Of a stretch of 64,000 bases of DNA, positions 6,673-63,155 are shown in pieces. Positions within the stretch are counted from its first letter, which is position 1. The number at the start of each line of letters is the position of its first letter. The DNA lies in NCBI GenBank assembly GCA_003524085.1, contig DOEC01000006.1, positions 1,146 to 65,145 of the forward strand, in the 5' to 3' direction. This DNA is from Bacillota bacterium (GTDB taxonomy: Bacteria > Bacillota_I > Bacilli_A > RF39 > UBA660). Made by a program: the position numbers and the translations under genes. Below the pieces are notes generated by a model. The model made no database searches. It was given only the letters and a program-made list of their open reading frames with translations, and was not told the origin of the DNA.

Positions 6673-6828
6673 TTATGCGTAGTAAACTTCTACCTCTATT
6701 GGAGTTTTCACATTACTAGCATTTACATCTTCTATCTTTTTAGTAAGCATAAATGCAAGTATCGCTATAATAAAATAGAATAACAATATACCTTTCATAC
6801 TATTAAATAATTTTTCAACTTTTTCCAT
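6673..6828 (-). CDS. Unannotated 51-aa single-pass membrane protein, divergent from lexA
   Basis: Hand translation gives MEKVEKLFNSMKGILLFYFIIAILAFMLTKKIEDVNASNVKTPIEVEVYYA*. An AGGAGAG RBS lies 8 nt upstream, and the gene has its own consensus promoter. It is below the length shown in the ORF track. Confidence 0.55.
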   Translation of the reverse strand: MEKVEKLFNSMKGILLFYFIIAILAFMLTKKIEDVNASNVKTPIEVEVYYA

Positions 6829-6852: not shown

Positions 6853-6929
6853 ATTTTATAACATATATTAGTTTGTGTCAATATTAAATCGCAAAAATGT
6901 TTGACAAATTTACATTTGTGTGTTAAACT
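6853..6929. promoter_or_regulatory. Divergent promoter pair (small gene / lexA), each carrying a 16-bp ACA-N10-TGT palindrome
   Basis: Minus strand: TTGACA (6876-6881), 17 nt, TAAAAT (6853-6858). Plus strand: TTGACA (6901-6906), 17 nt, TAAACT (6924-6929). Palindromes are ACATATATTAGTTTGT (6861-6876) and ACAAATTTACATTTGT (6904-6919). Confidence 0.6.
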
Positions 6930-6952: not shown

Positions 6953-7570
6953 ATGGAAAAATTAACTAAAAAACAAGAAGAAGTCTTGACAGTTATTAAA
7001 AAATACATAGCTGAACACGGCTATGCTCCAAGTGTAAGAGAAGTTTGTGAACTTATGAATTTAAGTTCAACTGCAACTGTATTCGTACATATGAGACATC
7101 TTATGAAGAAAGGATATTTAAAACAAACAGATAATAAATTTAGAACACTAGAAGTTTTAGTACCAAACGAATACTTAGAAAAAAATGAAGACGTTGTAAA
7201 CGTTCCACTACTTGGAAAAGTTACATGTGGTAACCCTATTGAAGCTATTGAGTTTCCTGATGAATACATAGCTTTACCAGCATTCATGATACCTAAGAAA
7301 GAAGAAATATTTACATTAAAAACTGAAGGAATGAGCATGAAGAACGTTGGAATATATGATGGAGATATAGTTATAGTAAAAAGACAAAAGAATGCAAAAA
7401 ATGGAGATTATGTTGTAGCACTTGATGAAAATGGATTTACTACATTAAAGACATTTTATAAAGAAAATGGATATTTTAGACTACAACCAGAAAACGAAAC
7501 TATGGACCCTATTATACTTGATAAAGTTGAGATACTTGGAATTGCAATAGGTCTATATAGAAAGTTTTAG
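6953..7570 (+). CDS. lexA: LexA repressor
   Basis: ORF track 6920..7570, with the start moved to MEKLTKKQEEVL (RBS AAAGGA). N-terminal wHTH (GYAPSVREVCELMNLSSTATV). C-terminal S24 peptidase with GMSM and VVKRQ (Ser/Lys dyad context). Confidence 0.9.
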   Translation: MEKLTKKQEEVLTVIKKYIAEHGYAPSVREVCELMNLSSTATVFVHMRHLMKKGYLKQTDNKFRTLEVLVPNEYLEKNEDVVNVPLLGKVTCGNPIEAIEFPDEYIALPAFMIPKKEEIFTLKTEGMSMKNVGIYDGDIVIVKRQKNAKNGDYVVALDENGFTTLKTFYKENGYFRLQPENETMDPIILDKVEILGIAIGLYRKF

Positions 7571-10943: not shown

Positions 10944-11852
10944 CTAACTAATTTGCACAGTTTTATTTATTTTAAATTCTACTATAGTTACTTGATTATC
11001 TTTTACGTAATGAGCTTCAAACTTATTTACTGACTTTGTTATAATTATTCCAATAGTACTATTTTGAGTTATATTTTTTAAGTGTTCGTCAATATAGTTC
11101 ATATACGTTTTTATTTGACCATAGTCACTTTTCTTATATTCTCTTGATTTTATCTCTACTACACAATATCTACTTTCAACCACATTATAAAATAGATAGT
11201 CTATATAATTCTTTTTGTCTCCAATGTTAAGTTTATATTCTCTTCCGACGTAAAAATATCCACCGCCTAATTGTTTCATAAAACTATCTAAGTTTTCATA
11301 AATAATTTCTTGTAATATTTTTTCAGTATAAACTTCATAACTTTTATTAGGTGTTAACACTATTGGACTGGGGACACTTTGAATTAAAGAAAGTTCTTCT
11401 TTATTTAAAAGACTTTCTTTTGCTTCAGTTGAGAGTCTACCATACTCATTACTCTTTATTCTTTCAGCTAATGCTCTTTTACTTAAATTATCTCGTTTAG
11501 TAATATGAATATAATACTTAATTTCTTTGATATCTCTTAGTGATAATAAAATCTTGTAATGACTCCACGTCAATTGTCGCTCCAGTGGAGCGACTTTTTG
11601 AATTAATAAATAAAATTGTTGTATCTTATATAAATCTTTTTCCTTATATCCACTTCCAAATTCCTTAGTTAAAATACTTGCATATTTTTTTACTATTCCT
11701 TCTCCATAGTGTTTACCTGCTTCTACTAGTTCCCTTCCTATATTATAATTCATTGTAAGTTTTACATTATTTATCTGATAATTCTTAGCTACTACTTTAG
11801 CATTTCCATTTATTATTTCAGTCTTTATATTACTTAAATATTCGTCTATCAT
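10944..11852 (-). CDS. DUF1016/YhcG-family PD-(D/E)XK nuclease-domain protein, array copy 1
   Basis: 302 aa. YhcG-N pattern (NYNIGRELVEAGKHYGEGI, EFGSGY, LTWSHYKILL). C-terminal IDYLFYN...VVEIK nuclease core and GQIKTYMNYID. Confidence 0.8.
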   Translation of the reverse strand: MIDEYLSNIKTEIINGNAKVVAKNYQINNVKLTMNYNIGRELVEAGKHYGEGIVKKYASILTKEFGSGYKEKDLYKIQQFYLLIQKVAPLERQLTWSHYKILLSLRDIKEIKYYIHITKRDNLSKRALAERIKSNEYGRLSTEAKESLLNKEELSLIQSVPSPIVLTPNKSYEVYTEKILQEIIYENLDSFMKQLGGGYFYVGREYKLNIGDKKNYIDYLFYNVVESRYCVVEIKSREYKKSDYGQIKTYMNYIDEHLKNITQNSTIGIIITKSVNKFEAHYVKDNQVTIVEFKINKTVQIS

Positions 11853-11864
11853 AAATTTTCCCTC

Positions 11865-12773
11865 CTAACTAATTTGCACAGTTTTGTTTATTTTAAATTC
11901 TACTATAGTTACTTGATTATCTTTTACATAATGTGCTTCAAACTTGTTTACTGATTTTGTTATAATTATTCCAATAGTATTATTTTGAGTTATATTTTTT
12001 AAGTGTTCGTCAATGTAGTTCATATACGTTTTTATTTGACCATAATCGCTTTTTCTATATTCTCTTGCTTTTATTTCAACTACACAATATCTACTGTCAA
12101 CTACATTATAAAATAGATAATCTATATAATTCTTTTTGTCTCCAATGTTAAGTTTATATTCCCTACCAATAAAAGCGTAGCCTCCACCAAGTTGATGCAT
12201 AAAATCTTCTATATTTTCAAAGATTATTTCTTGTAATATTTTTTCAGTATAAACTTTATAACTTTTATTAGATGTCAACACTATTGGACTTGGGACACTT
12301 TGAATTAAAGAAAGTTCTTCTTTATTTAAAAGACTTTCTTTTGTTCCATCTGAAAGTCTATCATACTCATCACTTCTTATTATTTCAGCTAATTTTCTAT
12401 AACTTAAATTATCTCTTATAGAAATATTAGTATAATAATTGATTTTATTGATATCTTTTAAAGGTAAAAGTAATCTTATGTGTTCCCAAGTCAATTGGTG
12501 CGGCAATGCCGCACCTTTTTCAAAAAGAACATAAAATTGACGCATTCTCTTTAAATTAGATACAGAATATCCACTTCCAAATTCCTTAGTTAAAATACTT
12601 GCATATTTTTTTACTATTCCTTCTCCATAGTGTTTACCTGCTTCTACTAGTTTCCTTCCTATATTATAATTCATTGTAAGTTTTACATTATTTATCTGAT
12701 AATTCTTAGCTGCTACTTTAGCATTTCCATTTATTATTTCAGTCTTTATATTACTTAAATATTCGTCTATCAT
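11865..12773 (-). CDS. DUF1016/YhcG-family PD-(D/E)XK nuclease-domain protein, array copy 2
   Basis: 302 aa paralog. A 12-nt gap with TAG-GAGGG stop/RBS overlap separates it from its neighbours. Confidence 0.8.
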   Translation of the reverse strand: MIDEYLSNIKTEIINGNAKVAAKNYQINNVKLTMNYNIGRKLVEAGKHYGEGIVKKYASILTKEFGSGYSVSNLKRMRQFYVLFEKGAALPHQLTWEHIRLLLPLKDINKINYYTNISIRDNLSYRKLAEIIRSDEYDRLSDGTKESLLNKEELSLIQSVPSPIVLTSNKSYKVYTEKILQEIIFENIEDFMHQLGGGYAFIGREYKLNIGDKKNYIDYLFYNVVDSRYCVVEIKAREYRKSDYGQIKTYMNYIDEHLKNITQNNTIGIIITKSVNKFEAHYVKDNQVTIVEFKINKTVQIS

Positions 12774-12785
12774 AAATTTTCCCTC

Positions 12786-13694
12786 CTAACTAATTTGCAC
12801 AGTTTTGTTTATTTTAAATCCTACTATAGTTACTTGATTATCTTTTACATAATGAGCTTCAAACTTATTTACTGATTTTGTTATAATTATTCCAATAGTA
12901 CTATTTTGAGTTATAGTTTTCAAGTGTTCGTCAATGTAGTTCATATACGTTTTTATTTGGCCATAATCGCTTTTCTTATACTCTCTTACTTTTATTTCAA
13001 CTACACAAAAACAGTTCATTTTGTAATTGTATAAAAGATAGTCTATATAATTCTTTTTATCTCCAATATTGAGTTTATATTCTCTACCAATAAAAGAGTA
13101 TTCTCCACCAAGTTGATGCATAAAATCTTCTATATTTTCAAATATTATTTCTTGTAATATCTTCTCATTATAAAATTCATAGCTTTTATTTGGTGTCAAT
13201 ACTATCGGACTGGGTATGCTTTGAATTATTGAAAGCTCTTCTTTGTTTAAAATACCCTCTTTCGTTTCAGTTGAAAGTCTGCCATACTCATTACTTCTTA
13301 TTCTTTCAGCCAATGCTCTTTTGCTTAAATTATCTCGTTTAGTAATACTAATATAATACTTGATTTCTTCTACATTTTTTAATGGTAAAAGTAATTTATA
13401 ATGAGACCAAGTCAAAAGTTGCCCCACTGGAGCAACTTTTTGACTTAAATCATAAAATTGCTTCATTCTTGTTAATTCTGTAAAAGTATATCCCTTACCA
13501 AATTCTACCGTTAATTCCTTTGCATATTTTTTTACTATTCCTTCTCCATAATGTTTACCAGCTTCTGCTAGTTCCTTACCAATATTATAGTTCATTGTAA
13601 GTTTTACATTGTTTATCTGATAATTTTTAGCTATTACTTTAGCATTACCATTTATTATTTCATTCTTTATATTTTCTAAATAATTGTCTATCAT
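12786..13694 (-). CDS. DUF1016/YhcG-family PD-(D/E)XK nuclease-domain protein, array copy 3 (first in the operon)
   Basis: 302 aa paralog. Same termini as the other copies, with divergent blocks at residues ~60-100 and around the nuclease core (IDYLLYNYKMNCFCVVEIK). Confidence 0.8.
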   Translation of the reverse strand: MIDNYLENIKNEIINGNAKVIAKNYQINNVKLTMNYNIGKELAEAGKHYGEGIVKKYAKELTVEFGKGYTFTELTRMKQFYDLSQKVAPVGQLLTWSHYKLLLPLKNVEEIKYYISITKRDNLSKRALAERIRSNEYGRLSTETKEGILNKEELSIIQSIPSPIVLTPNKSYEFYNEKILQEIIFENIEDFMHQLGGEYSFIGREYKLNIGDKKNYIDYLLYNYKMNCFCVVEIKVREYKKSDYGQIKTYMNYIDEHLKTITQNSTIGIIITKSVNKFEAHYVKDNQVTIVGFKINKTVQIS

Positions 13695-34627: not shown

Positions 34628-34657
34628 TTGACTATACAAACAAAGACGTGTTATACT
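34628..34657 (+). promoter_or_regulatory. Promoter of the Y-family polymerase operon with an embedded ACAAAC-N4-ACGTGT element
   Basis: TTGACT (34628-34633), 18 nt, TATACT (34652-34657). ACAAACAAAGACGTGT lies at 34636-34651 in the spacer. Confidence 0.5.
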
Positions 34658-34684
34658 TAATGCGAACAAAGGATGGTGTTTGTC

Positions 34685-35929
34685 ATGGAAGAAAGAAATA
34701 TTTTATGTATTGATTTAAAGAGTTTTTTTGCTTCAGTTGAATGTATTGAAAGAAATTTAGACCCGTTTACTACTCCCTTAATTGTTGCTGATCCATCTAG
34801 AAAAGGTGGGGCGATTACTCTTGCAGTTACTCCATATATGAAAACTCTTGGTGTACCTTCTCGTGGAAGAGTTTTTGAGATACCTAAAGGAATTAAATAT
34901 ATTACAGCTACTCCTAGAATGAGTTTGTATGTTAAGAAAAGTAAAGAAGTTATTAATTGTTTTTTAGATTTTGTAAGTAAAGAAGATATGCATGTGTACT
35001 CTATAGACGAAGCGTTTTTAGATGTTACTGATTATTTAAAGTTATATAAGATGGATGATGTTACTTTAGCTAAAAACATAATGGCTAGAATTAAAGAGAA
35101 GACAGGACTTACTAGTACGTGTGGAATTGGGCCCAACTTACTTCTTGCTAAGGTTGCACTTGATATTGAGAGTAAACATAGTCCTGACTTTATCGCTAAG
35201 TGGACTTATGAAGATGTGAAGACTAAGTTATGGAATATAACACCATTAGACGAGATGTGGGGAATTGGATCTAAAACTATGAAAAAACTAAATGATCTAG
35301 GAATATATAAGGTTGGAGATATTAATAAGTATGGTAAAGAGTTTTATAAGAAAAGATTTGGTGTGTTAGGCGAAGAGTTGTATTTGCACGCGAATGGGAT
35401 AGATTATAGTAATATTAAAAATGATAGATATGAAGTTAAAAATAAAAGTTATGGACTTAGTCAGATATTATATAAAGATTATACTCCTAGTGAAGTTATT
35501 TTAATTGTTAAAGAGATGTGTGAGACCGCTACTAAAAGACTTAGAAGTAATAAAAAAGCATGCGAAGTAGTTGGTTTTGGTATTGGATACTCTAGAAGTG
35601 TTGGTGGTGGGTTTTATCATTCTAAGAAGTTATCTTCTCCTACTGATAAAGATAGCGTTATTTATGAAGTGTGCAAAAGTATACTTGATGCGTATATTGA
35701 AGAACTTCCTATTAGAAAGGTAAGTATTTCTCTTGGTAAATTAAGTGATAATAATTATGTACAGTTAAATTTATTTGATACAAACGAAGAAAGTTATGAT
35801 GAGACTATGAAAACAATTGACGAGATAACTAAGAGATTTGGGGATAATGCTATTTTAAAAGCGTCTAGTTTACTTGATTATAGTACAATTAAAATGCGTA
35901 ATAAGAAGATGGGTGGACATAATAAGTAA
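34685..35929 (+). CDS. Y-family DNA polymerase (DinB/UvrX/YqjW-like translesion polymerase)
   Basis: Track ORF 34673..35929. ILCIDLKSFFASVEC, YSIDEAFLDVT and the HhH WGIGSKTMKKL are present. Confidence 0.9.
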   Translation: MEERNILCIDLKSFFASVECIERNLDPFTTPLIVADPSRKGGAITLAVTPYMKTLGVPSRGRVFEIPKGIKYITATPRMSLYVKKSKEVINCFLDFVSKEDMHVYSIDEAFLDVTDYLKLYKMDDVTLAKNIMARIKEKTGLTSTCGIGPNLLLAKVALDIESKHSPDFIAKWTYEDVKTKLWNITPLDEMWGIGSKTMKKLNDLGIYKVGDINKYGKEFYKKRFGVLGEELYLHANGIDYSNIKNDRYEVKNKSYGLSQILYKDYTPSEVILIVKEMCETATKRLRSNKKACEVVGFGIGYSRSVGGGFYHSKKLSSPTDKDSVIYEVCKSILDAYIEELPIRKVSISLGKLSDNNYVQLNLFDTNEESYDETMKTIDEITKRFGDNAILKASSLLDYSTIKMRNKKMGGHNK

Positions 35930-35939
35930 TGGTGATATT

Positions 35940-36245
35940 ATGTATAGAAAAATGATTAAATGGAAACCATTTAATACCTTACTTAAGTATAAAGATATTT
36001 TAGAAATTGATAAAAATAGACAGTTAGTTGATAAGCCTGTTATTATGGAAGACAGGATATATGAAATTAATGATGTGTTAAAGAGTGTGAATTCTTCTAC
36101 TTTAGTTAGAGTAAAATATTTTAATAAAGGAATGCTATTATATAAAGAAGGATATGTTAGTAAAATTGATACAATAGAAAAATATATTCTAATAGATAGA
36201 TTTAGAATATATTTTAGGGAACTTATTAAAATTGAAGTTATTTAG
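35940..36245 (+). CDS. YolD-like protein (UmuD-position partner of the Y-family polymerase)
   Basis: Track ORF 35874..36245, with the start moved to MYRKMIKWKPFNTL. ~100 aa, located immediately downstream of the polymerase as in uvrX-yolD and yqjW-yqjX pairs. Confidence 0.6.
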   Translation: MYRKMIKWKPFNTLLKYKDILEIDKNRQLVDKPVIMEDRIYEINDVLKSVNSSTLVRVKYFNKGMLLYKEGYVSKIDTIEKYILIDRFRIYFRELIKIEVI

Positions 36246-36793: not shown

Positions 36794-37102
36794 CTATAGT
36801 TTTAAAGTCTTTTCTTTACCTTTAATGATAATGTTGTTATTTTGTGTAAATGACATGTCATATTCCTTAAAGTTTATCTTATCTAAAATTTGTTTTGGAA
36901 TTTTTATTTTGTTACCTACTTTTTCAACACTATAAGTATTTGCTAGTATTATTCTATAAACTTTTCTATTTTGACTAGTCATACTTAAATTTATGTTTTG
37001 TTTTAAGTTTGAAAGGATAAGAGTGTTTTCGTCTATCAAAGTAATGGATGTGAAATTTAAGTTTTCTGGTATTATCAAAAAATTATTTTTTATTTCAAAC
37101 AT
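36794..37102 (-). CDS. Hypothetical protein (102 aa)
   Basis: ORF track plus a GGGGGC RBS and a consensus promoter. Confidence 0.5.
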   Translation of the reverse strand: MFEIKNNFLIIPENLNFTSITLIDENTLILSNLKQNINLSMTSQNRKVYRIILANTYSVEKVGNKIKIPKQILDKINFKEYDMSFTQNNNIIIKGKEKTLKL

Positions 37103-37125
37103 AATGTAGCCCCCTTAATTACTAT

Positions 37126-37156
37126 AATTATACCATATTTGGTACTGTTTTGTCAA
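37126..37156 (-). promoter_or_regulatory. Promoter with the conserved AATTATACCATATTTGGTAC core containing palindrome TACCA-N4-TGGTA
   Basis: On the minus strand: TTGACA (37151-37156), 18 nt, TATAAT (37127-37132). The palindrome lies at 37131-37144. Confidence 0.6.
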
Positions 37157-37220
37157 AAATTTGTGCTTTTATTTTTTAGGGTTAATTGATATAATTATAA
37201 TAGGTAAAGGTAGGGATTAT

Positions 37221-39310: not shown

Positions 39311-39387
39311 GGGGAATTAGCTCAGTTGGCTAGAGCACCTGCCTTGCACGCAGGGGGTCGCGGGTTCAAGTCCCACATTCTCCACCA
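39311..39387 (+). tRNA. tRNA-Ala (anticodon UGC)
   Basis: GGGGAATTAGCTCAGTTGG...CCTTGCACGCAGG...TTCAAGTCCCACATTCTCCACCA. The G3:U70 identity pair is present and CCA is encoded. Confidence 0.95.
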
Positions 39388-43840: not shown

Positions 43841-43876
43841 TCATTCTTTCATCACAAGTTTTACATTGTTATTTTA

Positions 43877-46130: not shown

Positions 46131-46207
46131 TGGTCGGGAAGACAGGATTTGAACCTGCAACCACTCGGTCCCAAACCGAGTGCTCTACCAAGTTGAGCCA
46201 CTTCCCG
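46131..46207 (-). tRNA. tRNA-Pro (UGG)
   Basis: The reverse complement gives CGGGAAGTGGCTCAACTTGG...CTCGGTTTGGGACCGAG...CCA. Confidence 0.95.
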
Positions 46208-46212
46208 ATAAA

Positions 46213-46289
46213 TGGCGTCCCCAAGAGGAGTCGAACCCCTAACCTTTTGATCCGTAGTCAAACGCTCTATCCAGTTGAGCTATGAGGAC
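46213..46289 (-). tRNA. tRNA-Arg (ACG)
   Basis: The anticodon loop on the minus strand is CTACGGA. Cloverleaf and CCA are present. Confidence 0.9.
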
Positions 46290-46332
46290 AGCCTGTCCAA
46301 AATATATATAAGCTCCGGCTGGCTTTTAAAAA

Positions 46333-46408
46333 TGGTGGCTTCAGTTGGAATCGAACCAACGACACCAAGATTTTCAGTCTTGTGCTCTGCCAACTGAGCT
46401 ATGAAGCC
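46333..46408 (-). tRNA. tRNA-Phe (GAA)
   Basis: GGCTTCATAGCTCAGTTGG...CAAGACTGAAAATCTTG...CCA. Confidence 0.95.
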
Positions 46409-46412
46409 ACAA

Positions 46413-46488
46413 TGGCGGTTCCGACGGGAATTGAACCCGCGATCCCTCGCGTGACAGGCGAGTGTGATAACCGCTACACCACGGAACC
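46413..46488 (-). tRNA. tRNA-Asp (GUC)
   Basis: GGTTCCGTGGTGTAGCGG...CTCGCCTGTCACGCGAG...CCA. Confidence 0.95.
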
Positions 46489-46495
46489 TTATTTT

Positions 46496-46572
<77 letters not shown>

Positions 46573-46590
46573 ATGTTAGTTTTTTAATTT

Positions 46591-46683
46591 TGGCGGAGGA
46601 AAAGGGATTTGAACCCCTGCGCCGCTTTCACGACCTCCTGGTTTTCAAGACCAGTCCCTTCAGCCAGACTTGGGTATTCCTCC
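46591..46683 (-). tRNA. tRNA-Ser (UGA), long variable arm
   Basis: GGAGGAATACCCAAGTCTGG...CTGGTCTTGAAAACCAG...CCA. 93 nt. Confidence 0.9.
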
Positions 46684-46690
46684 AACAAGA

Positions 46691-46779
46691 TGGTGCCTCG
46701 GGCCGGACTTGAACCGGCACGGTATTTAACTACCGAGGGATTTTAAGTCCCTTGCGTCTACCAATTTCGCCACCGAGGC
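46691..46779 (-). tRNA. tRNA-Leu (UAA), long variable arm
   Basis: GCCTCGGTGGCGAAATTGG...AGGGACTTAAAATCCCT...CCA. 89 nt. Confidence 0.9.
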
Positions 46780-46803
46780 GTGTCACAATTTTTTATTAAA
46801 AAA

Positions 46804-46879
46804 TGGTGACCCGCTGGAGATTCGAACTCCAGACCCCTTGATTAAAAGTCAAGTGCTCTACCGGCTGAGCTAGCGGGTC
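46804..46879 (-). tRNA. tRNA-Lys (UUU)
   Basis: GACCCGCTAGCTCAGCCGG...CTTGACTTTTAATCAAG...CCA. Confidence 0.95.
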
Positions 46880-46891
46880 AATATTATAAAT

Positions 46892-46967
46892 TGGTTGCCT
46901 CGGCGGGATTCGAACCAGCGAAATGCACGAGTCAAAGTCGTGTGCCTTACCACTTGGCTACGAGGCA
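46892..46967 (-). tRNA. tRNA-Gln (UUG)
   Basis: TGCCTCGTAGCCAAGTGG...CACGACTTTGACTCGTG...CCA. Confidence 0.9.
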
Positions 46968-46974
46968 ATCTAAG

Positions 46975-47058
46975 TGGTGGAGAGACATGGATTCGAACCA
47001 TGGAACCCGAAGGAACAGATTTACAGTCTGCCGCGTTTAGCCTCTTCGCTATCTCTCC
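46975..47058 (-). tRNA. tRNA-Tyr (GUA), long variable arm
   Basis: GGAGAGATAGCGAAGAGG...CAGACTGTAAATCTG...CCA. 84 nt. Confidence 0.9.
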
Positions 47059-47065
47059 AAAAAAA

Positions 47066-47141
<76 letters not shown>

Positions 47142-47147
47142 AAATTA

Positions 47148-47224
47148 TGGTGGGCGACGAGAGACTCGAACTCCCGACCTCCTGCTTGTAAGGCAGATGC
47201 TCTAACCAACTGAGCTAGTCGCCC
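47148..47224 (-). tRNA. tRNA-Val (UAC)
   Basis: GGGCGACTAGCTCAGTTGG...CTGCCTTACAAGCAG...CCA. It is the first gene of the array. Confidence 0.95.
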
Positions 47225-61963: not shown

Positions 61964-63034
61964 TCACTCCCCTATTTCTTTATTTTTCTCTATATTAACA
62001 CTACTAATCTCGTCAAATCTTTTGCTTATTTTATCAGTAGTAATATGGATATCTCTAACATCTTTGTTAACTGTCTCCATGTGTTGACTAAGTTTATCCC
62101 ACCTTTCTTTATAACGCATAAATTCTTCTCCTAGTTTATTTAATTCAGTGTGAATAATACTTGTATATTTATCTCTTTCCATACCCATTAAAATTGCTTG
62201 AACAAGTGTAAGTAAACTCATTAATGTAGTAGGACTTGCAATATAAACGTGCCTTGAATAGGCGTAGTTGATAAGGTTTGGATGGTATGCATTTATTTCA
62301 GCAAATATAGCTTCAGCTGGTAAAAACATTATTGCTTCATCTGATGTTTCTCCACTTATTATGTACTTACTTCCAATTGCATCAATATGTTTTTTCACAT
62401 CACTTTCAAACATCTTTTCTCTTCTTATTCTTTCTTCATCTGTTATTCCTTTTTCTAGCATATATCTATAGTTCTCCAATGGAAACTTTGAGTCAATACA
62501 AATTCTACCTAATGGAGATGGTGCAAAAACTATCGCGTCAGCAATAACGCCCGTACTTAAAGAATATTGTAAACTATAAACTTTATCATTCTTATCTCCG
62601 AAAACACTAGATAATATTTGATGCAAATTAACTTCTCCAAAAATACCACGACTTTTCTTATCCGTTAACACTGACTGTAAACTCACTATATCATTAGATA
62701 GCCCATCTATTTTCTTTTGTGCCTCGTCTATTTTAGCAAGACGCTCTAAAACTGACGCAAAAGTCTTGTTAGTCTTTTCAAAATTCACATCAAGTCTTTC
62801 ATTAACTTTATCATTAATCATATTAAGTTTGTGCTCTATTCTATCATTTAGTTTATCAAAGTCACTAGTTAAATCTCTAGAAAAATTTAACTTAAAATCT
62901 CCAATTTCCCTTATAATATCTCCTTCTACCTTACTTAAAGAAATATCATTTTCCTTATTCTTTTTAATATTTAATAACACTATAATTAACAATATTACTA
63001 CTAATACAACTAAACCTAATATTACATACTCCAT
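61964..63034 (-). CDS. rmuC: DNA recombination protein RmuC
   Basis: Track ORF to 63049, with the start moved to MEYVILG after an AGGAG RBS. It has an N-terminal TM, a coiled coil, and the RmuC C-domain (RGIFGEVNL, VIADAIVF, CIDSKFPLENY, MFLPAEAIF). Confidence 0.85.
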   Translation of the reverse strand: MEYVILGLVVLVVILLIIVLLNIKKNKENDISLSKVEGDIIREIGDFKLNFSRDLTSDFDKLNDRIEHKLNMINDKVNERLDVNFEKTNKTFASVLERLAKIDEAQKKIDGLSNDIVSLQSVLTDKKSRGIFGEVNLHQILSSVFGDKNDKVYSLQYSLSTGVIADAIVFAPSPLGRICIDSKFPLENYRYMLEKGITDEERIRREKMFESDVKKHIDAIGSKYIISGETSDEAIMFLPAEAIFAEINAYHPNLINYAYSRHVYIASPTTLMSLLTLVQAILMGMERDKYTSIIHTELNKLGEEFMRYKERWDKLSQHMETVNKDVRDIHITTDKISKRFDEISSVNIEKNKEIGE

Positions 63035-63055: not shown

Positions 63056-63084
63056 ATTTTAACATAAGCCAATTACATTGTCAA
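63056..63084 (-). promoter_or_regulatory. rmuC promoter
   Basis: On the minus strand: TTGACA (63079-63084), 17 nt, TAAAAT (63056-63061). Confidence 0.6.
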
Positions 63085-63155
63085 CCTTTTGTTCGCTAAT
63101 TTTGTAATAAAAAAATTCTACTACAAACATCTTTCACTTCTCATATTTAAATAAC

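Follow-up and report, generated by a model that had tools for sequence, protein, structure and literature searches.

The palindromic elements in the promoters of lexA, of the small gene divergent from it and of a Y-family polymerase operon are most probably degenerate, AT-drifted copies of the Firmicutes LexA operator (the Cheo box, CGAAC-N4-GTTCG) and not a new class of operator. Relatives carry an ordinary LexA operator at the positions where these 16-mers lie, and the 16-mers are therefore most likely eroded AT-rich copies of it. This reading is built on the register of the elements, their orthology and conservation, their placement in promoters and the presence of an intact LexA, all of which were observed directly. 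It would give an abundant uncultured lineage of human-gut Bacilli a small predicted LexA regulon, made up of lexA, a peptide gene in the position of YneA/SosA, the Y-family polymerase/YolD operon and rmuC, a result that matters little beyond annotation. On the same reading, a standard operator can come to look like a new palindrome through AT drift and CpG decay.

Genes of the lexA locus and of the window

The stretch of DNA analysed, referred to here as the window, comprises 64,000 nucleotides with a G+C content of approximately 28%. The genes of interest are the following:

6673..6828, − strand: gene for a 51-aa single-pass membrane protein beginning MEKVEKLFNSMKGILLFYFIIAILAFML, divergent from lexA
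6953..7570, + strand: lexA, 205 aa (TIGR00498, 203 bits against a cutoff of 111; Pfam LexA_DNA_bind, PF01726, and Peptidase_S24, PF00717)
34685..36245, + strand: operon of a Y-family DNA polymerase and a YolD-like protein (Pfam IMS, IMS_HHH, IMS_C and YolD)
34685-35929, + strand: the Y-family polymerase gene of this operon, followed by the YolD-like gene at 35874-36245
61964..63034, − strand: rmuC, encoding a DNA recombination protein (Pfam RmuC, E = 2.8e-56)

The assignments of lexA and of the polymerase operon in the preliminary description were right, the former being supported by TIGR00498 and Pfam and the latter by Pfam; the NCBIfam models of polymerase IV/UmuC type also match the polymerase, with scores below their curated cutoffs. 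Scoring above the TIGR00498 cutoff, LexA consists of a winged-helix DNA-binding domain and an S24 self-cleaving domain, whose Ser/Lys dyad aligns with S119 and K156 of E. coli LexA. At least 1,000 contigs carry its exact sequence. The cleavage site, Cys92-Gly93 (window 7226-7231), is a Cys-Gly pair found in all 16 genus members, whereas all 35 other members of the clade have Ala-Gly; Cys-Gly is also the cleavage site of UmuD. The region of the recognition helix reads SSTATVFVHM in the genus of the window and SPATVFVH(I/V/M) in relatives with CGAAT-N4-GTTCG boxes, the alpha-3 helix being ATVFVH here vs STVHGH in B. subtilis. The ATVFVH helix is common to the genus and to relatives with near-canonical boxes (CGAAT-ATTT-GTTCG and (C/T)GAAC-AWTT-GTTTG at the homologous positions), and it gives no sign of a specificity switch between their LexA proteins.

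A Pfam search with the 51-aa membrane protein gave no match. Most relatives encode at the same position a protein of 45-52 aa with one hydrophobic helix, and the position next to lexA is that of yneA in B. subtilis and of sosA in S. aureus (PMC13396833, PMC6851548). By position only, and without a sequence family, the 51-aa protein is a candidate SOS-induced inhibitor of cell division like YneA and SosA. In a relative from the Lachnospiraceae (L051) a larger protein occupies this place, and its C-terminal half looks LysM-like by eye. Elsewhere in the window, three tandem ORFs of equal length (302 aa; 10944-13694, − strand) are probably paralogues.

The list of SOS genes in E. coli includes rmuC/yigN (PMC6590174), and rmuC is likely to be a fourth LexA-controlled unit of the window. 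Searches by tblastn with approximate recA, uvrA, uvrB and ruvB fragments found none of these genes in the window or in 105 loci of relatives, and 10 kb of further sequence beyond the rmuC end of the window were without SOS genes. Genes resembling those of conjugation or type IV secretion (a VirD4/TraG-type coupling protein, a TraC-like protein, a P-loop TraG and a SpoIID or lysozyme-type hydrolase) were observed a few kb upstream of rmuC in this species and its relatives (L106, 4306-6663; L110-L114); they may belong to an integrated conjugative element just past the right end of the window.

Promoters and the three 16-bp elements

Promoters were called with a consensus scanner that considers the −35 and −10 hexamers and their spacing. 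Four of them are relevant here:

6853..6881, − strand: promoter of the divergent small gene; TTGACA (6881-6876), 17 nt, TAAAAT (6858-6853); 11 of 12 consensus matches
6901..6929, + strand: lexA promoter; TTGACA (6901-6906), 17 nt, TAAACT (6924-6929); extended −10 TG
34628..34657, + strand: promoter of the Y-family polymerase operon; TTGACT (34628-34633), 18 nt, TATACT (34652-34657); extended −10 TG
63056..63084, − strand: rmuC promoter; TTGACA (63084-63079), 17 nt, TAAAAT (63061-63056)

The preliminary description had placed three 16-bp palindromes of the form ACA-N10-TGT in or overlapping the spacers of SOS-type promoters. Their sequences and positions proved exact: ACATATATTAGTTTGT at 6861-6876 (site 1), ACAAATTTACATTTGT at 6904-6919 (site 2, with lexA downstream) and ACAAACAAAGACGTGT at 34636-34651 (site 3), all three inside strong sigma-70-type promoter-like sites. 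These promoters are of SOS type, as had been described, and at least sites 1 and 3 fall where an operator is conserved across the phylogeny, so that control of them by LexA is likely. Apart from its outer triplets, only site 2 is a true palindrome (6/6), with 4/6 for site 1 and 3/6 for site 3.

Part of the outer arms belongs to the promoters themselves, the ACA of site 2 being the 3′ half of the lexA −35 hexamer TTGACA and the TGT of site 3 the extended −10 (TGn) of the polymerase promoter. The conserved ATATG half was also considered as a Gram-positive −16 element (TRTG); this was rejected for the divergent promoter, where the TG lies two bases out of place with respect to the best −10. The −16 reading fits the polymerase promoter (TATG-T-TATACT) and was retained for site 3 only.

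The motif ACA-N10-TGT is not over-represented in the window, with 12 matches vs 21.2 ± 4.8 expected from dinucleotide-preserving shuffles. As a LexA operator it fails on two counts, its outer triplets being neither enriched over chance in the window nor conserved at orthologous SOS promoters. The refined form ACAWAY-N4-RYNTGT had been said to occur in exactly three SOS promoters, a count that is circular, the motif matching only the sites from which it was built. A fourth intergenic copy of ACA-N10-TGT lies at 43854-43869, upstream of a prolyl-tRNA synthetase gene; it was rejected as a LexA site, with a matrix score of −9.9 and no SOS link.

Operator-like boxes in the window

A search of the window for GAAC-N4-GTTC, strict or with one mismatch, gave 11 matches vs 13.6 expected, none of them at the promoters. 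Matching to this consensus fails because the boxes are too degenerate, and orthologue footprinting and a matrix were therefore used. The matrix, symmetrised and 14 bp long, was derived from 36 unique sites, all of them in genera other than that of the window, and was run over the 63,987 positions of the window; the training sites are orthologous and hence not independent, so that both the matrix penalties and the confidence are inflated. The boxes are given below with their ranks and scores:

6862..6875, − strand: Box 1, core of site 1, CAAAC-TAAT-ATATG, immediately following the divergent promoter's −35; hemi-canonical Cheo-type; rank 4, score 8.4
6890..6903, + strand: Box a, overlapping the −35 of lexA; CGCAA-AAAT-GTTTG, or CAAAC-ATTT-TTGCG when read on the minus strand; rank 2, score 10.2
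6905..6918, + strand: Box b, core of site 2, CAAAT-TTAC-ATTTG, in the spacer of the lexA promoter; rank 39, score 4.1
34637..34650, + strand: Box P1, core of site 3, CAAAC-AAAG-ACGTG, in the spacer of the polymerase promoter; rank 302, score 0.03
34663..34676, + strand: Box P2, CGAACAAAGGATGG, CGAAC-AAAG-GATGG, in the leader of the polymerase gene, past the −10 and ahead of the ribosome-binding site; rank 12, score 6.2
63082..63095, − strand: rmuC box, CGAACAAAAGGTTG, CGAAC-AAAA-GGTTG, overlapping the −35 of the rmuC promoter; rank 1, score 10.9, the best of the window

The earlier statement that no good Cheo box exists at these promoters was too strong, the first reading having missed both CGAACAAAGGATGG (P2) and CGCAAAAATGTTTG (Box a, 6890-6903). 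The matrix hits at rmuC and P2 do not depend on the training sites. Scored with the same matrix, the B. subtilis consensus CGAACATATGTTCG reaches 22.0, above every training site (11.7-21.4), and the motif of the clade is therefore the Cheo box. All boxes of the window score 0.03-10.9, below every training site (at least 11.7), and none has both halves near the consensus. In 457 kb from loci of relatives, 101 positions score 10 or more; 85 of them lie upstream of lexA, and the remaining 16 are mostly found at promoters of polymerase genes or of rmuC. Weak hits at 37076-37167, between two unannotated genes, were set aside, being without a family match or an SOS-linked promoter.

The geometry of the Cheo box (5-bp arms and a 4-bp spacer) applies to all three 16-mers, each of which is made up of a flanking base, 14 bp and a second flanking base, in the register of the orthologous canonical boxes. 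Natural Cheo boxes have a recognisable GAAC or GTTC core in each arm and tolerate 1-3 mismatches. Here the good arm is CAAAC in site 1, Box a and P1 and CGAAC in P2 and the rmuC box, the other arm being poor, and both arms of site 2 are CAAAT; the weak halves read CATAT, CAAAT, CGCAA, CACGT and CCATC. The boxes overlap the core promoters of lexA and of the translesion polymerase and recombination genes, as is the case for Cheo-type operators. The only two intergenic CGAAC pentamers of the window outside tRNA genes are those of P2 and the rmuC box. As a separate observation, the window contains a cluster of 12 tRNA genes (46134-47224, − strand) and an isolated tRNA gene (39311-39384, + strand), and four of the six intergenic CGAAC pentamers lie in the T-arms of these tRNAs.

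In the Cheo register the 16-mers correspond to A-C[G>A]AAC-N4-GTT[C>T]G-T, the extended Firmicutes consensus TACGAACATATGTTCGTA (PMC2248561) changed by two CpG-to-TpG/CpA transitions, which turn ACG...CGT into ACA...TGT. Their ACA...TGT look would arise because of conserved flanking A/T, the G2>A and C13>T transitions, and the overlap with the end of the −35 TTGACA and with the TGn of the extended −10.

Orthologous promoters

The comparison covered 80 lexA loci and 25 polymerase loci of relatives. The divergent arrangement of lexA and the small gene is kept in approximately 45 genomes, whose LexA is 56-100% identical to that of the window. At site 1, the C(G/A)AAC half (read as GTT(C/T)G) was present in all 15 orthologues from the genus of the window and in all 23 from other genera, i.e. 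in 38 of 38 unique orthologues. The arms ACA-N10-TGT were found at site 1 in 5 of 15 sequences of the genus and 0 of 23 of other genera, and at site 2 in 2 of 9 and 0 of 31, respectively; most genus members carry at site 2 an ACA-N12-TGT whose TGTG adjoins the −10. Because the half is kept in 38 of 38 orthologues and the ACA/TGT arms are mostly lost, the alignments identify the C(G/A)AAC half-site in Cheo register, and not the arms, as the invariant feature of the sites. The proposal that ACA-N10-TGT replaces GAAC-N4-GTTC as a divergent operator is not supported by this comparison.

In other genera the position of site 1 is occupied by aCACGAATATTTGTTCGTGTCAAt, that is, CGAAT-ATTT-GTTCG abutting the −35, which is essentially the B. 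subtilis recA operator, CGAATATGCGTTCG. Left-half variants in these genera are CAAAT, CGTAT, CATAC, CGAAC and CAAAC. The lexA promoter of relatives has (C/T/A)(G/A)AAC-AWWT-GTTTG fused to the −35, as in CGAACAATTGTTTGACA of L044. In approximately 35 relatives from other genera the sequence is CGAAT-ATTT-GTTCG at site 1 and (C/T/A)(G/A)AAC-AWWT-GTTTG-ACA at the lexA −35, and the genus of the window shows at the same two places CATAT-AATT-GTT(C/T)G and C(G/A)NAA-AAAT-GTTTG, with eroded left halves. Box a, present in every clade sequence with a lexA −35 anchor, is the orthologue of the lexA auto-operator, canonical in other genera (e.g. CGAAC-AATT-GTTTG in L044) and with its left half eroded in the genus of the window.

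The spacer of the lexA promoter is approximately 90% conserved within the genus as CAAAT-GTAC-GTTTT, and its consensus CAAATGTACGTTTT is a weak Cheo match (score 4.9). Boxes in the rmuC spacers of two relatives, TTGA-CAAAC-ACAT-ATTTG (L113) and TTGA-CAAAC-AATT-ATTTG (L114; score 16.1), stand in the register of site 2. In view of this spacer conservation and of the register of the L113 and L114 boxes, Box b may still be a second, weak LexA box. In other genera (L018-L052) the start of the lexA spacer, corresponding to window 6907-6913, is conserved as TTGAC(A/T)TTTTACA, which fits no register of a LexA box.

At the polymerase promoter, the position of P1 reads CAAAC-AAAW-ATATG across the genus (scores 8.4-12.7) and CGAAC-AAAA-GTATT in L099, a 57%-identical relative; orthologues of P2 read CGAAC-AAGT-GTTGG (L098) and AGAAC-AAAG-GTTTG (L100). 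The case for sites 2 and 3 as putative LexA boxes is thus one of orthology and spacer conservation and not of their own sequence. Downstream of the polymerase gene, two distant relatives, L098 (about 1537-1550) and L100 (about 1947-1960), have a second box, CGAACAAAGGATTG, in the same leader-like context, which suggests a separately LexA-controlled gene there. Boxes at the rmuC promoter occur in three of six lineages, being present in L113 and L114 as well as in the window and absent in L110-L112, which suggests that the LexA regulon of the clade includes rmuC in some lineages and not in others.

Polymorphisms within the species also fall on the CpG of the boxes. At site 1 (position 6874), L001, whose LexA is 100% identical to that of the window, reads GTTCG and the window GTTTG; at P1 (position 34647) the window reads ACGTG vs ATGTG in L081. 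Such differences are consistent with an ongoing CpG>TpG decay of the operators.

Proposed mode of action and alternative readings

In the mechanism that we propose from B. subtilis and C. difficile, a LexA dimer would bind the 14-bp boxes at or over the −35, or filling the −35/−10 spacer, and exclude RNA polymerase from the promoters of lexA, the divergent small membrane protein, the Y-family polymerase/YolD operon and rmuC. Upon DNA damage, RecA-stimulated self-cleavage of LexA at Cys92-Gly93 through its Ser/Lys dyad would relieve repression. Each box would act with one kept half (CGAAC or the CpG-decayed CAAAC) and a weak AT-rich half, and the weak halves may be offset by the presence of two boxes per promoter, Box 1 being paired with Box a and possibly with Box b, and P1 with P2. 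By analogy with these two species we infer both the binding of LexA to the boxes of the window and their inducibility by damage. The G of GAAC, the base changed in CAAAC, is reportedly a core position of the B. subtilis box, and for this reason the binding of LexA to CAAAC halves is taken here as an assumption.

A doubtful extension of this mechanism is that LexA of the genus acts via hemi-operators, i.e. one C(G/A)AAC half with an AT-rich partner, usually two per promoter. Its clade-specific ATVFVH helix, in place of STVHGH, would then confer a relaxed specificity that tolerates A at the G of GAAC, and the genus-specific Cys-Gly cleavage site might go along with changed kinetics of induction. 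If true, the boxes would be a documented intermediate in the drift of LexA operators under extreme AT pressure, and the lineage, if this is confirmed, a natural case of co-drift of LexA and its operator.

It is similarly unlikely that the sites are relics, AT mutational bias having decayed the boxes of this species so far that repression by LexA is lost at some or all of the promoters, with the palindromes being chance AT-rich sequence framed by promoter elements. The low scores of the window boxes (0-10.9 vs 11.7-21.4 for the training sites) speak for this possibility, as does the finding that they are the weakest versions in the genus, with site 1 at 8.4 vs 14.8 in L004 and P1 at 0.03 vs 12.7 in L096. 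The CpG>TpG polymorphisms within the species strike the boxes themselves (GTTCG/GTTTG and ACGTG/ATGTG), and three of the six arms of the 16-mers overlap −35 or extended −10 elements. However, the exact LexA sequence on at least 1,000 contigs has its catalytic residues intact, the C(G/A)AAC half was never lost among the 38 orthologues of site 1, the approximately 90% conservation of the lexA spacer in the genus is unusual for a promoter spacer, and the top matrix hits still pick out promoters of DNA-repair genes.

A switch of LexA to a new palindromic operator, ACA-N10-TGT (ACAWAY-N4-RYNTGT) in place of the Cheo box, is very improbable. The occurrence of all three 16-mers in spacers of SOS-type promoters, the perfect 6-N4-6 palindrome of site 2, the rmuC orthologue of L114, which also reads ACAAACAATTATTTGT, and the difference of the alpha-3 helix from that of B. 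subtilis would agree with such a switch. On the contrary, the motif shows no enrichment in the window, and the arms are kept in only 5/15, 0/23, 2/9 and 0/31 orthologous promoters; the ATVFVH helix is shared by relatives with CGAAT-N4-GTTCG boxes, and L001, with an identical LexA, has ...GTTCGT at site 1. Furthermore, the CGAAC boxes at P2 and rmuC are not captured by the motif, and its refined form was fitted to its own three instances. The comparison of orthologues already largely refutes the switch.

Equally remote is the idea that the conserved spacer elements reflect another regulator or a constraint intrinsic to the promoter, with which the low score of the lexA spacer consensus (4.9) and the conserved TTTTACA after the −35 in other genera, unexplained by any LexA box, would agree, but no other regulator gene is linked, geometry and half-sites fit LexA boxes, and the arrangement is found again at the promoters of lexA, the polymerase and rmuC, together a set typical of a LexA regulon.

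With eroded Cheo boxes as the preferred explanation, the locus is a caution for motif hunting in very AT-rich genomes, where the outer C/G and the flanking A/T survive and the GAAC core erodes in one half.

Comparison with known operators

The E. coli SOS box, CTG-N10-CAG (CTGT-N8-ACAG), is like ACA-N10-TGT in having trinucleotide arms 10 bp apart and 16 bp in total. Unlike it, the arms here read ACA/TGT or ACG/CGT, and conservation falls on the inner positions 2-6 and 11-15 of the 16-mer, which is the pattern of a Cheo box; in the orthologue alignments, outer arms of the CTG/CAG type were not found at the 16-mers.

In Actinobacteria, the lexA promoters of Corynebacterium conserve the half-site TCGAAC and have lost the full palindrome (PMC2248561). 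They provide a precedent for the conservation of one half, although they belong to another phylum and their half-sites are multiplied and distal, whereas the boxes described here have fixed promoter positions and the full 14-bp register.

C. difficile is also a low-GC organism. Its lexA, recA and ruvC operators are GAAC-N4-GTTT, and its recA operator AGAACAAATGTTTGT binds LexA stably in SPR (PMC4234289); the C>T variant half GTTT(G-T) is thus usual at these three genes. This recA operator is almost identical to Box a of the clade relatives, AGAAC/TGAAC-AAWT-GTTTG. C. difficile differs in that one half is a perfect GAAC and the second half GTTT, the boxes of the window being more degenerate.

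The closest correspondence is with the Cheo box of B. subtilis DinR/LexA, found in Firmicutes and Actinobacteria. The window differs from it in lacking any box with two good halves and in frequently having CAAAC in place of CGAAC as the strong half. The boxes share with it the 14-bp dyad, the AT-rich 4-bp spacer and the flanking A/T, as in the extended Firmicutes consensus for lexA promoters, TACGAACATATGTTCGTA (PMC2248561), as well as a location at or beside the −35 or within the spacer, in promoters of lexA, Y-family polymerases and recombination genes. Finally, as in the lexA-yneA region of B. subtilis, lexA is divergent from a gene for a small membrane protein, and there are several boxes per promoter.
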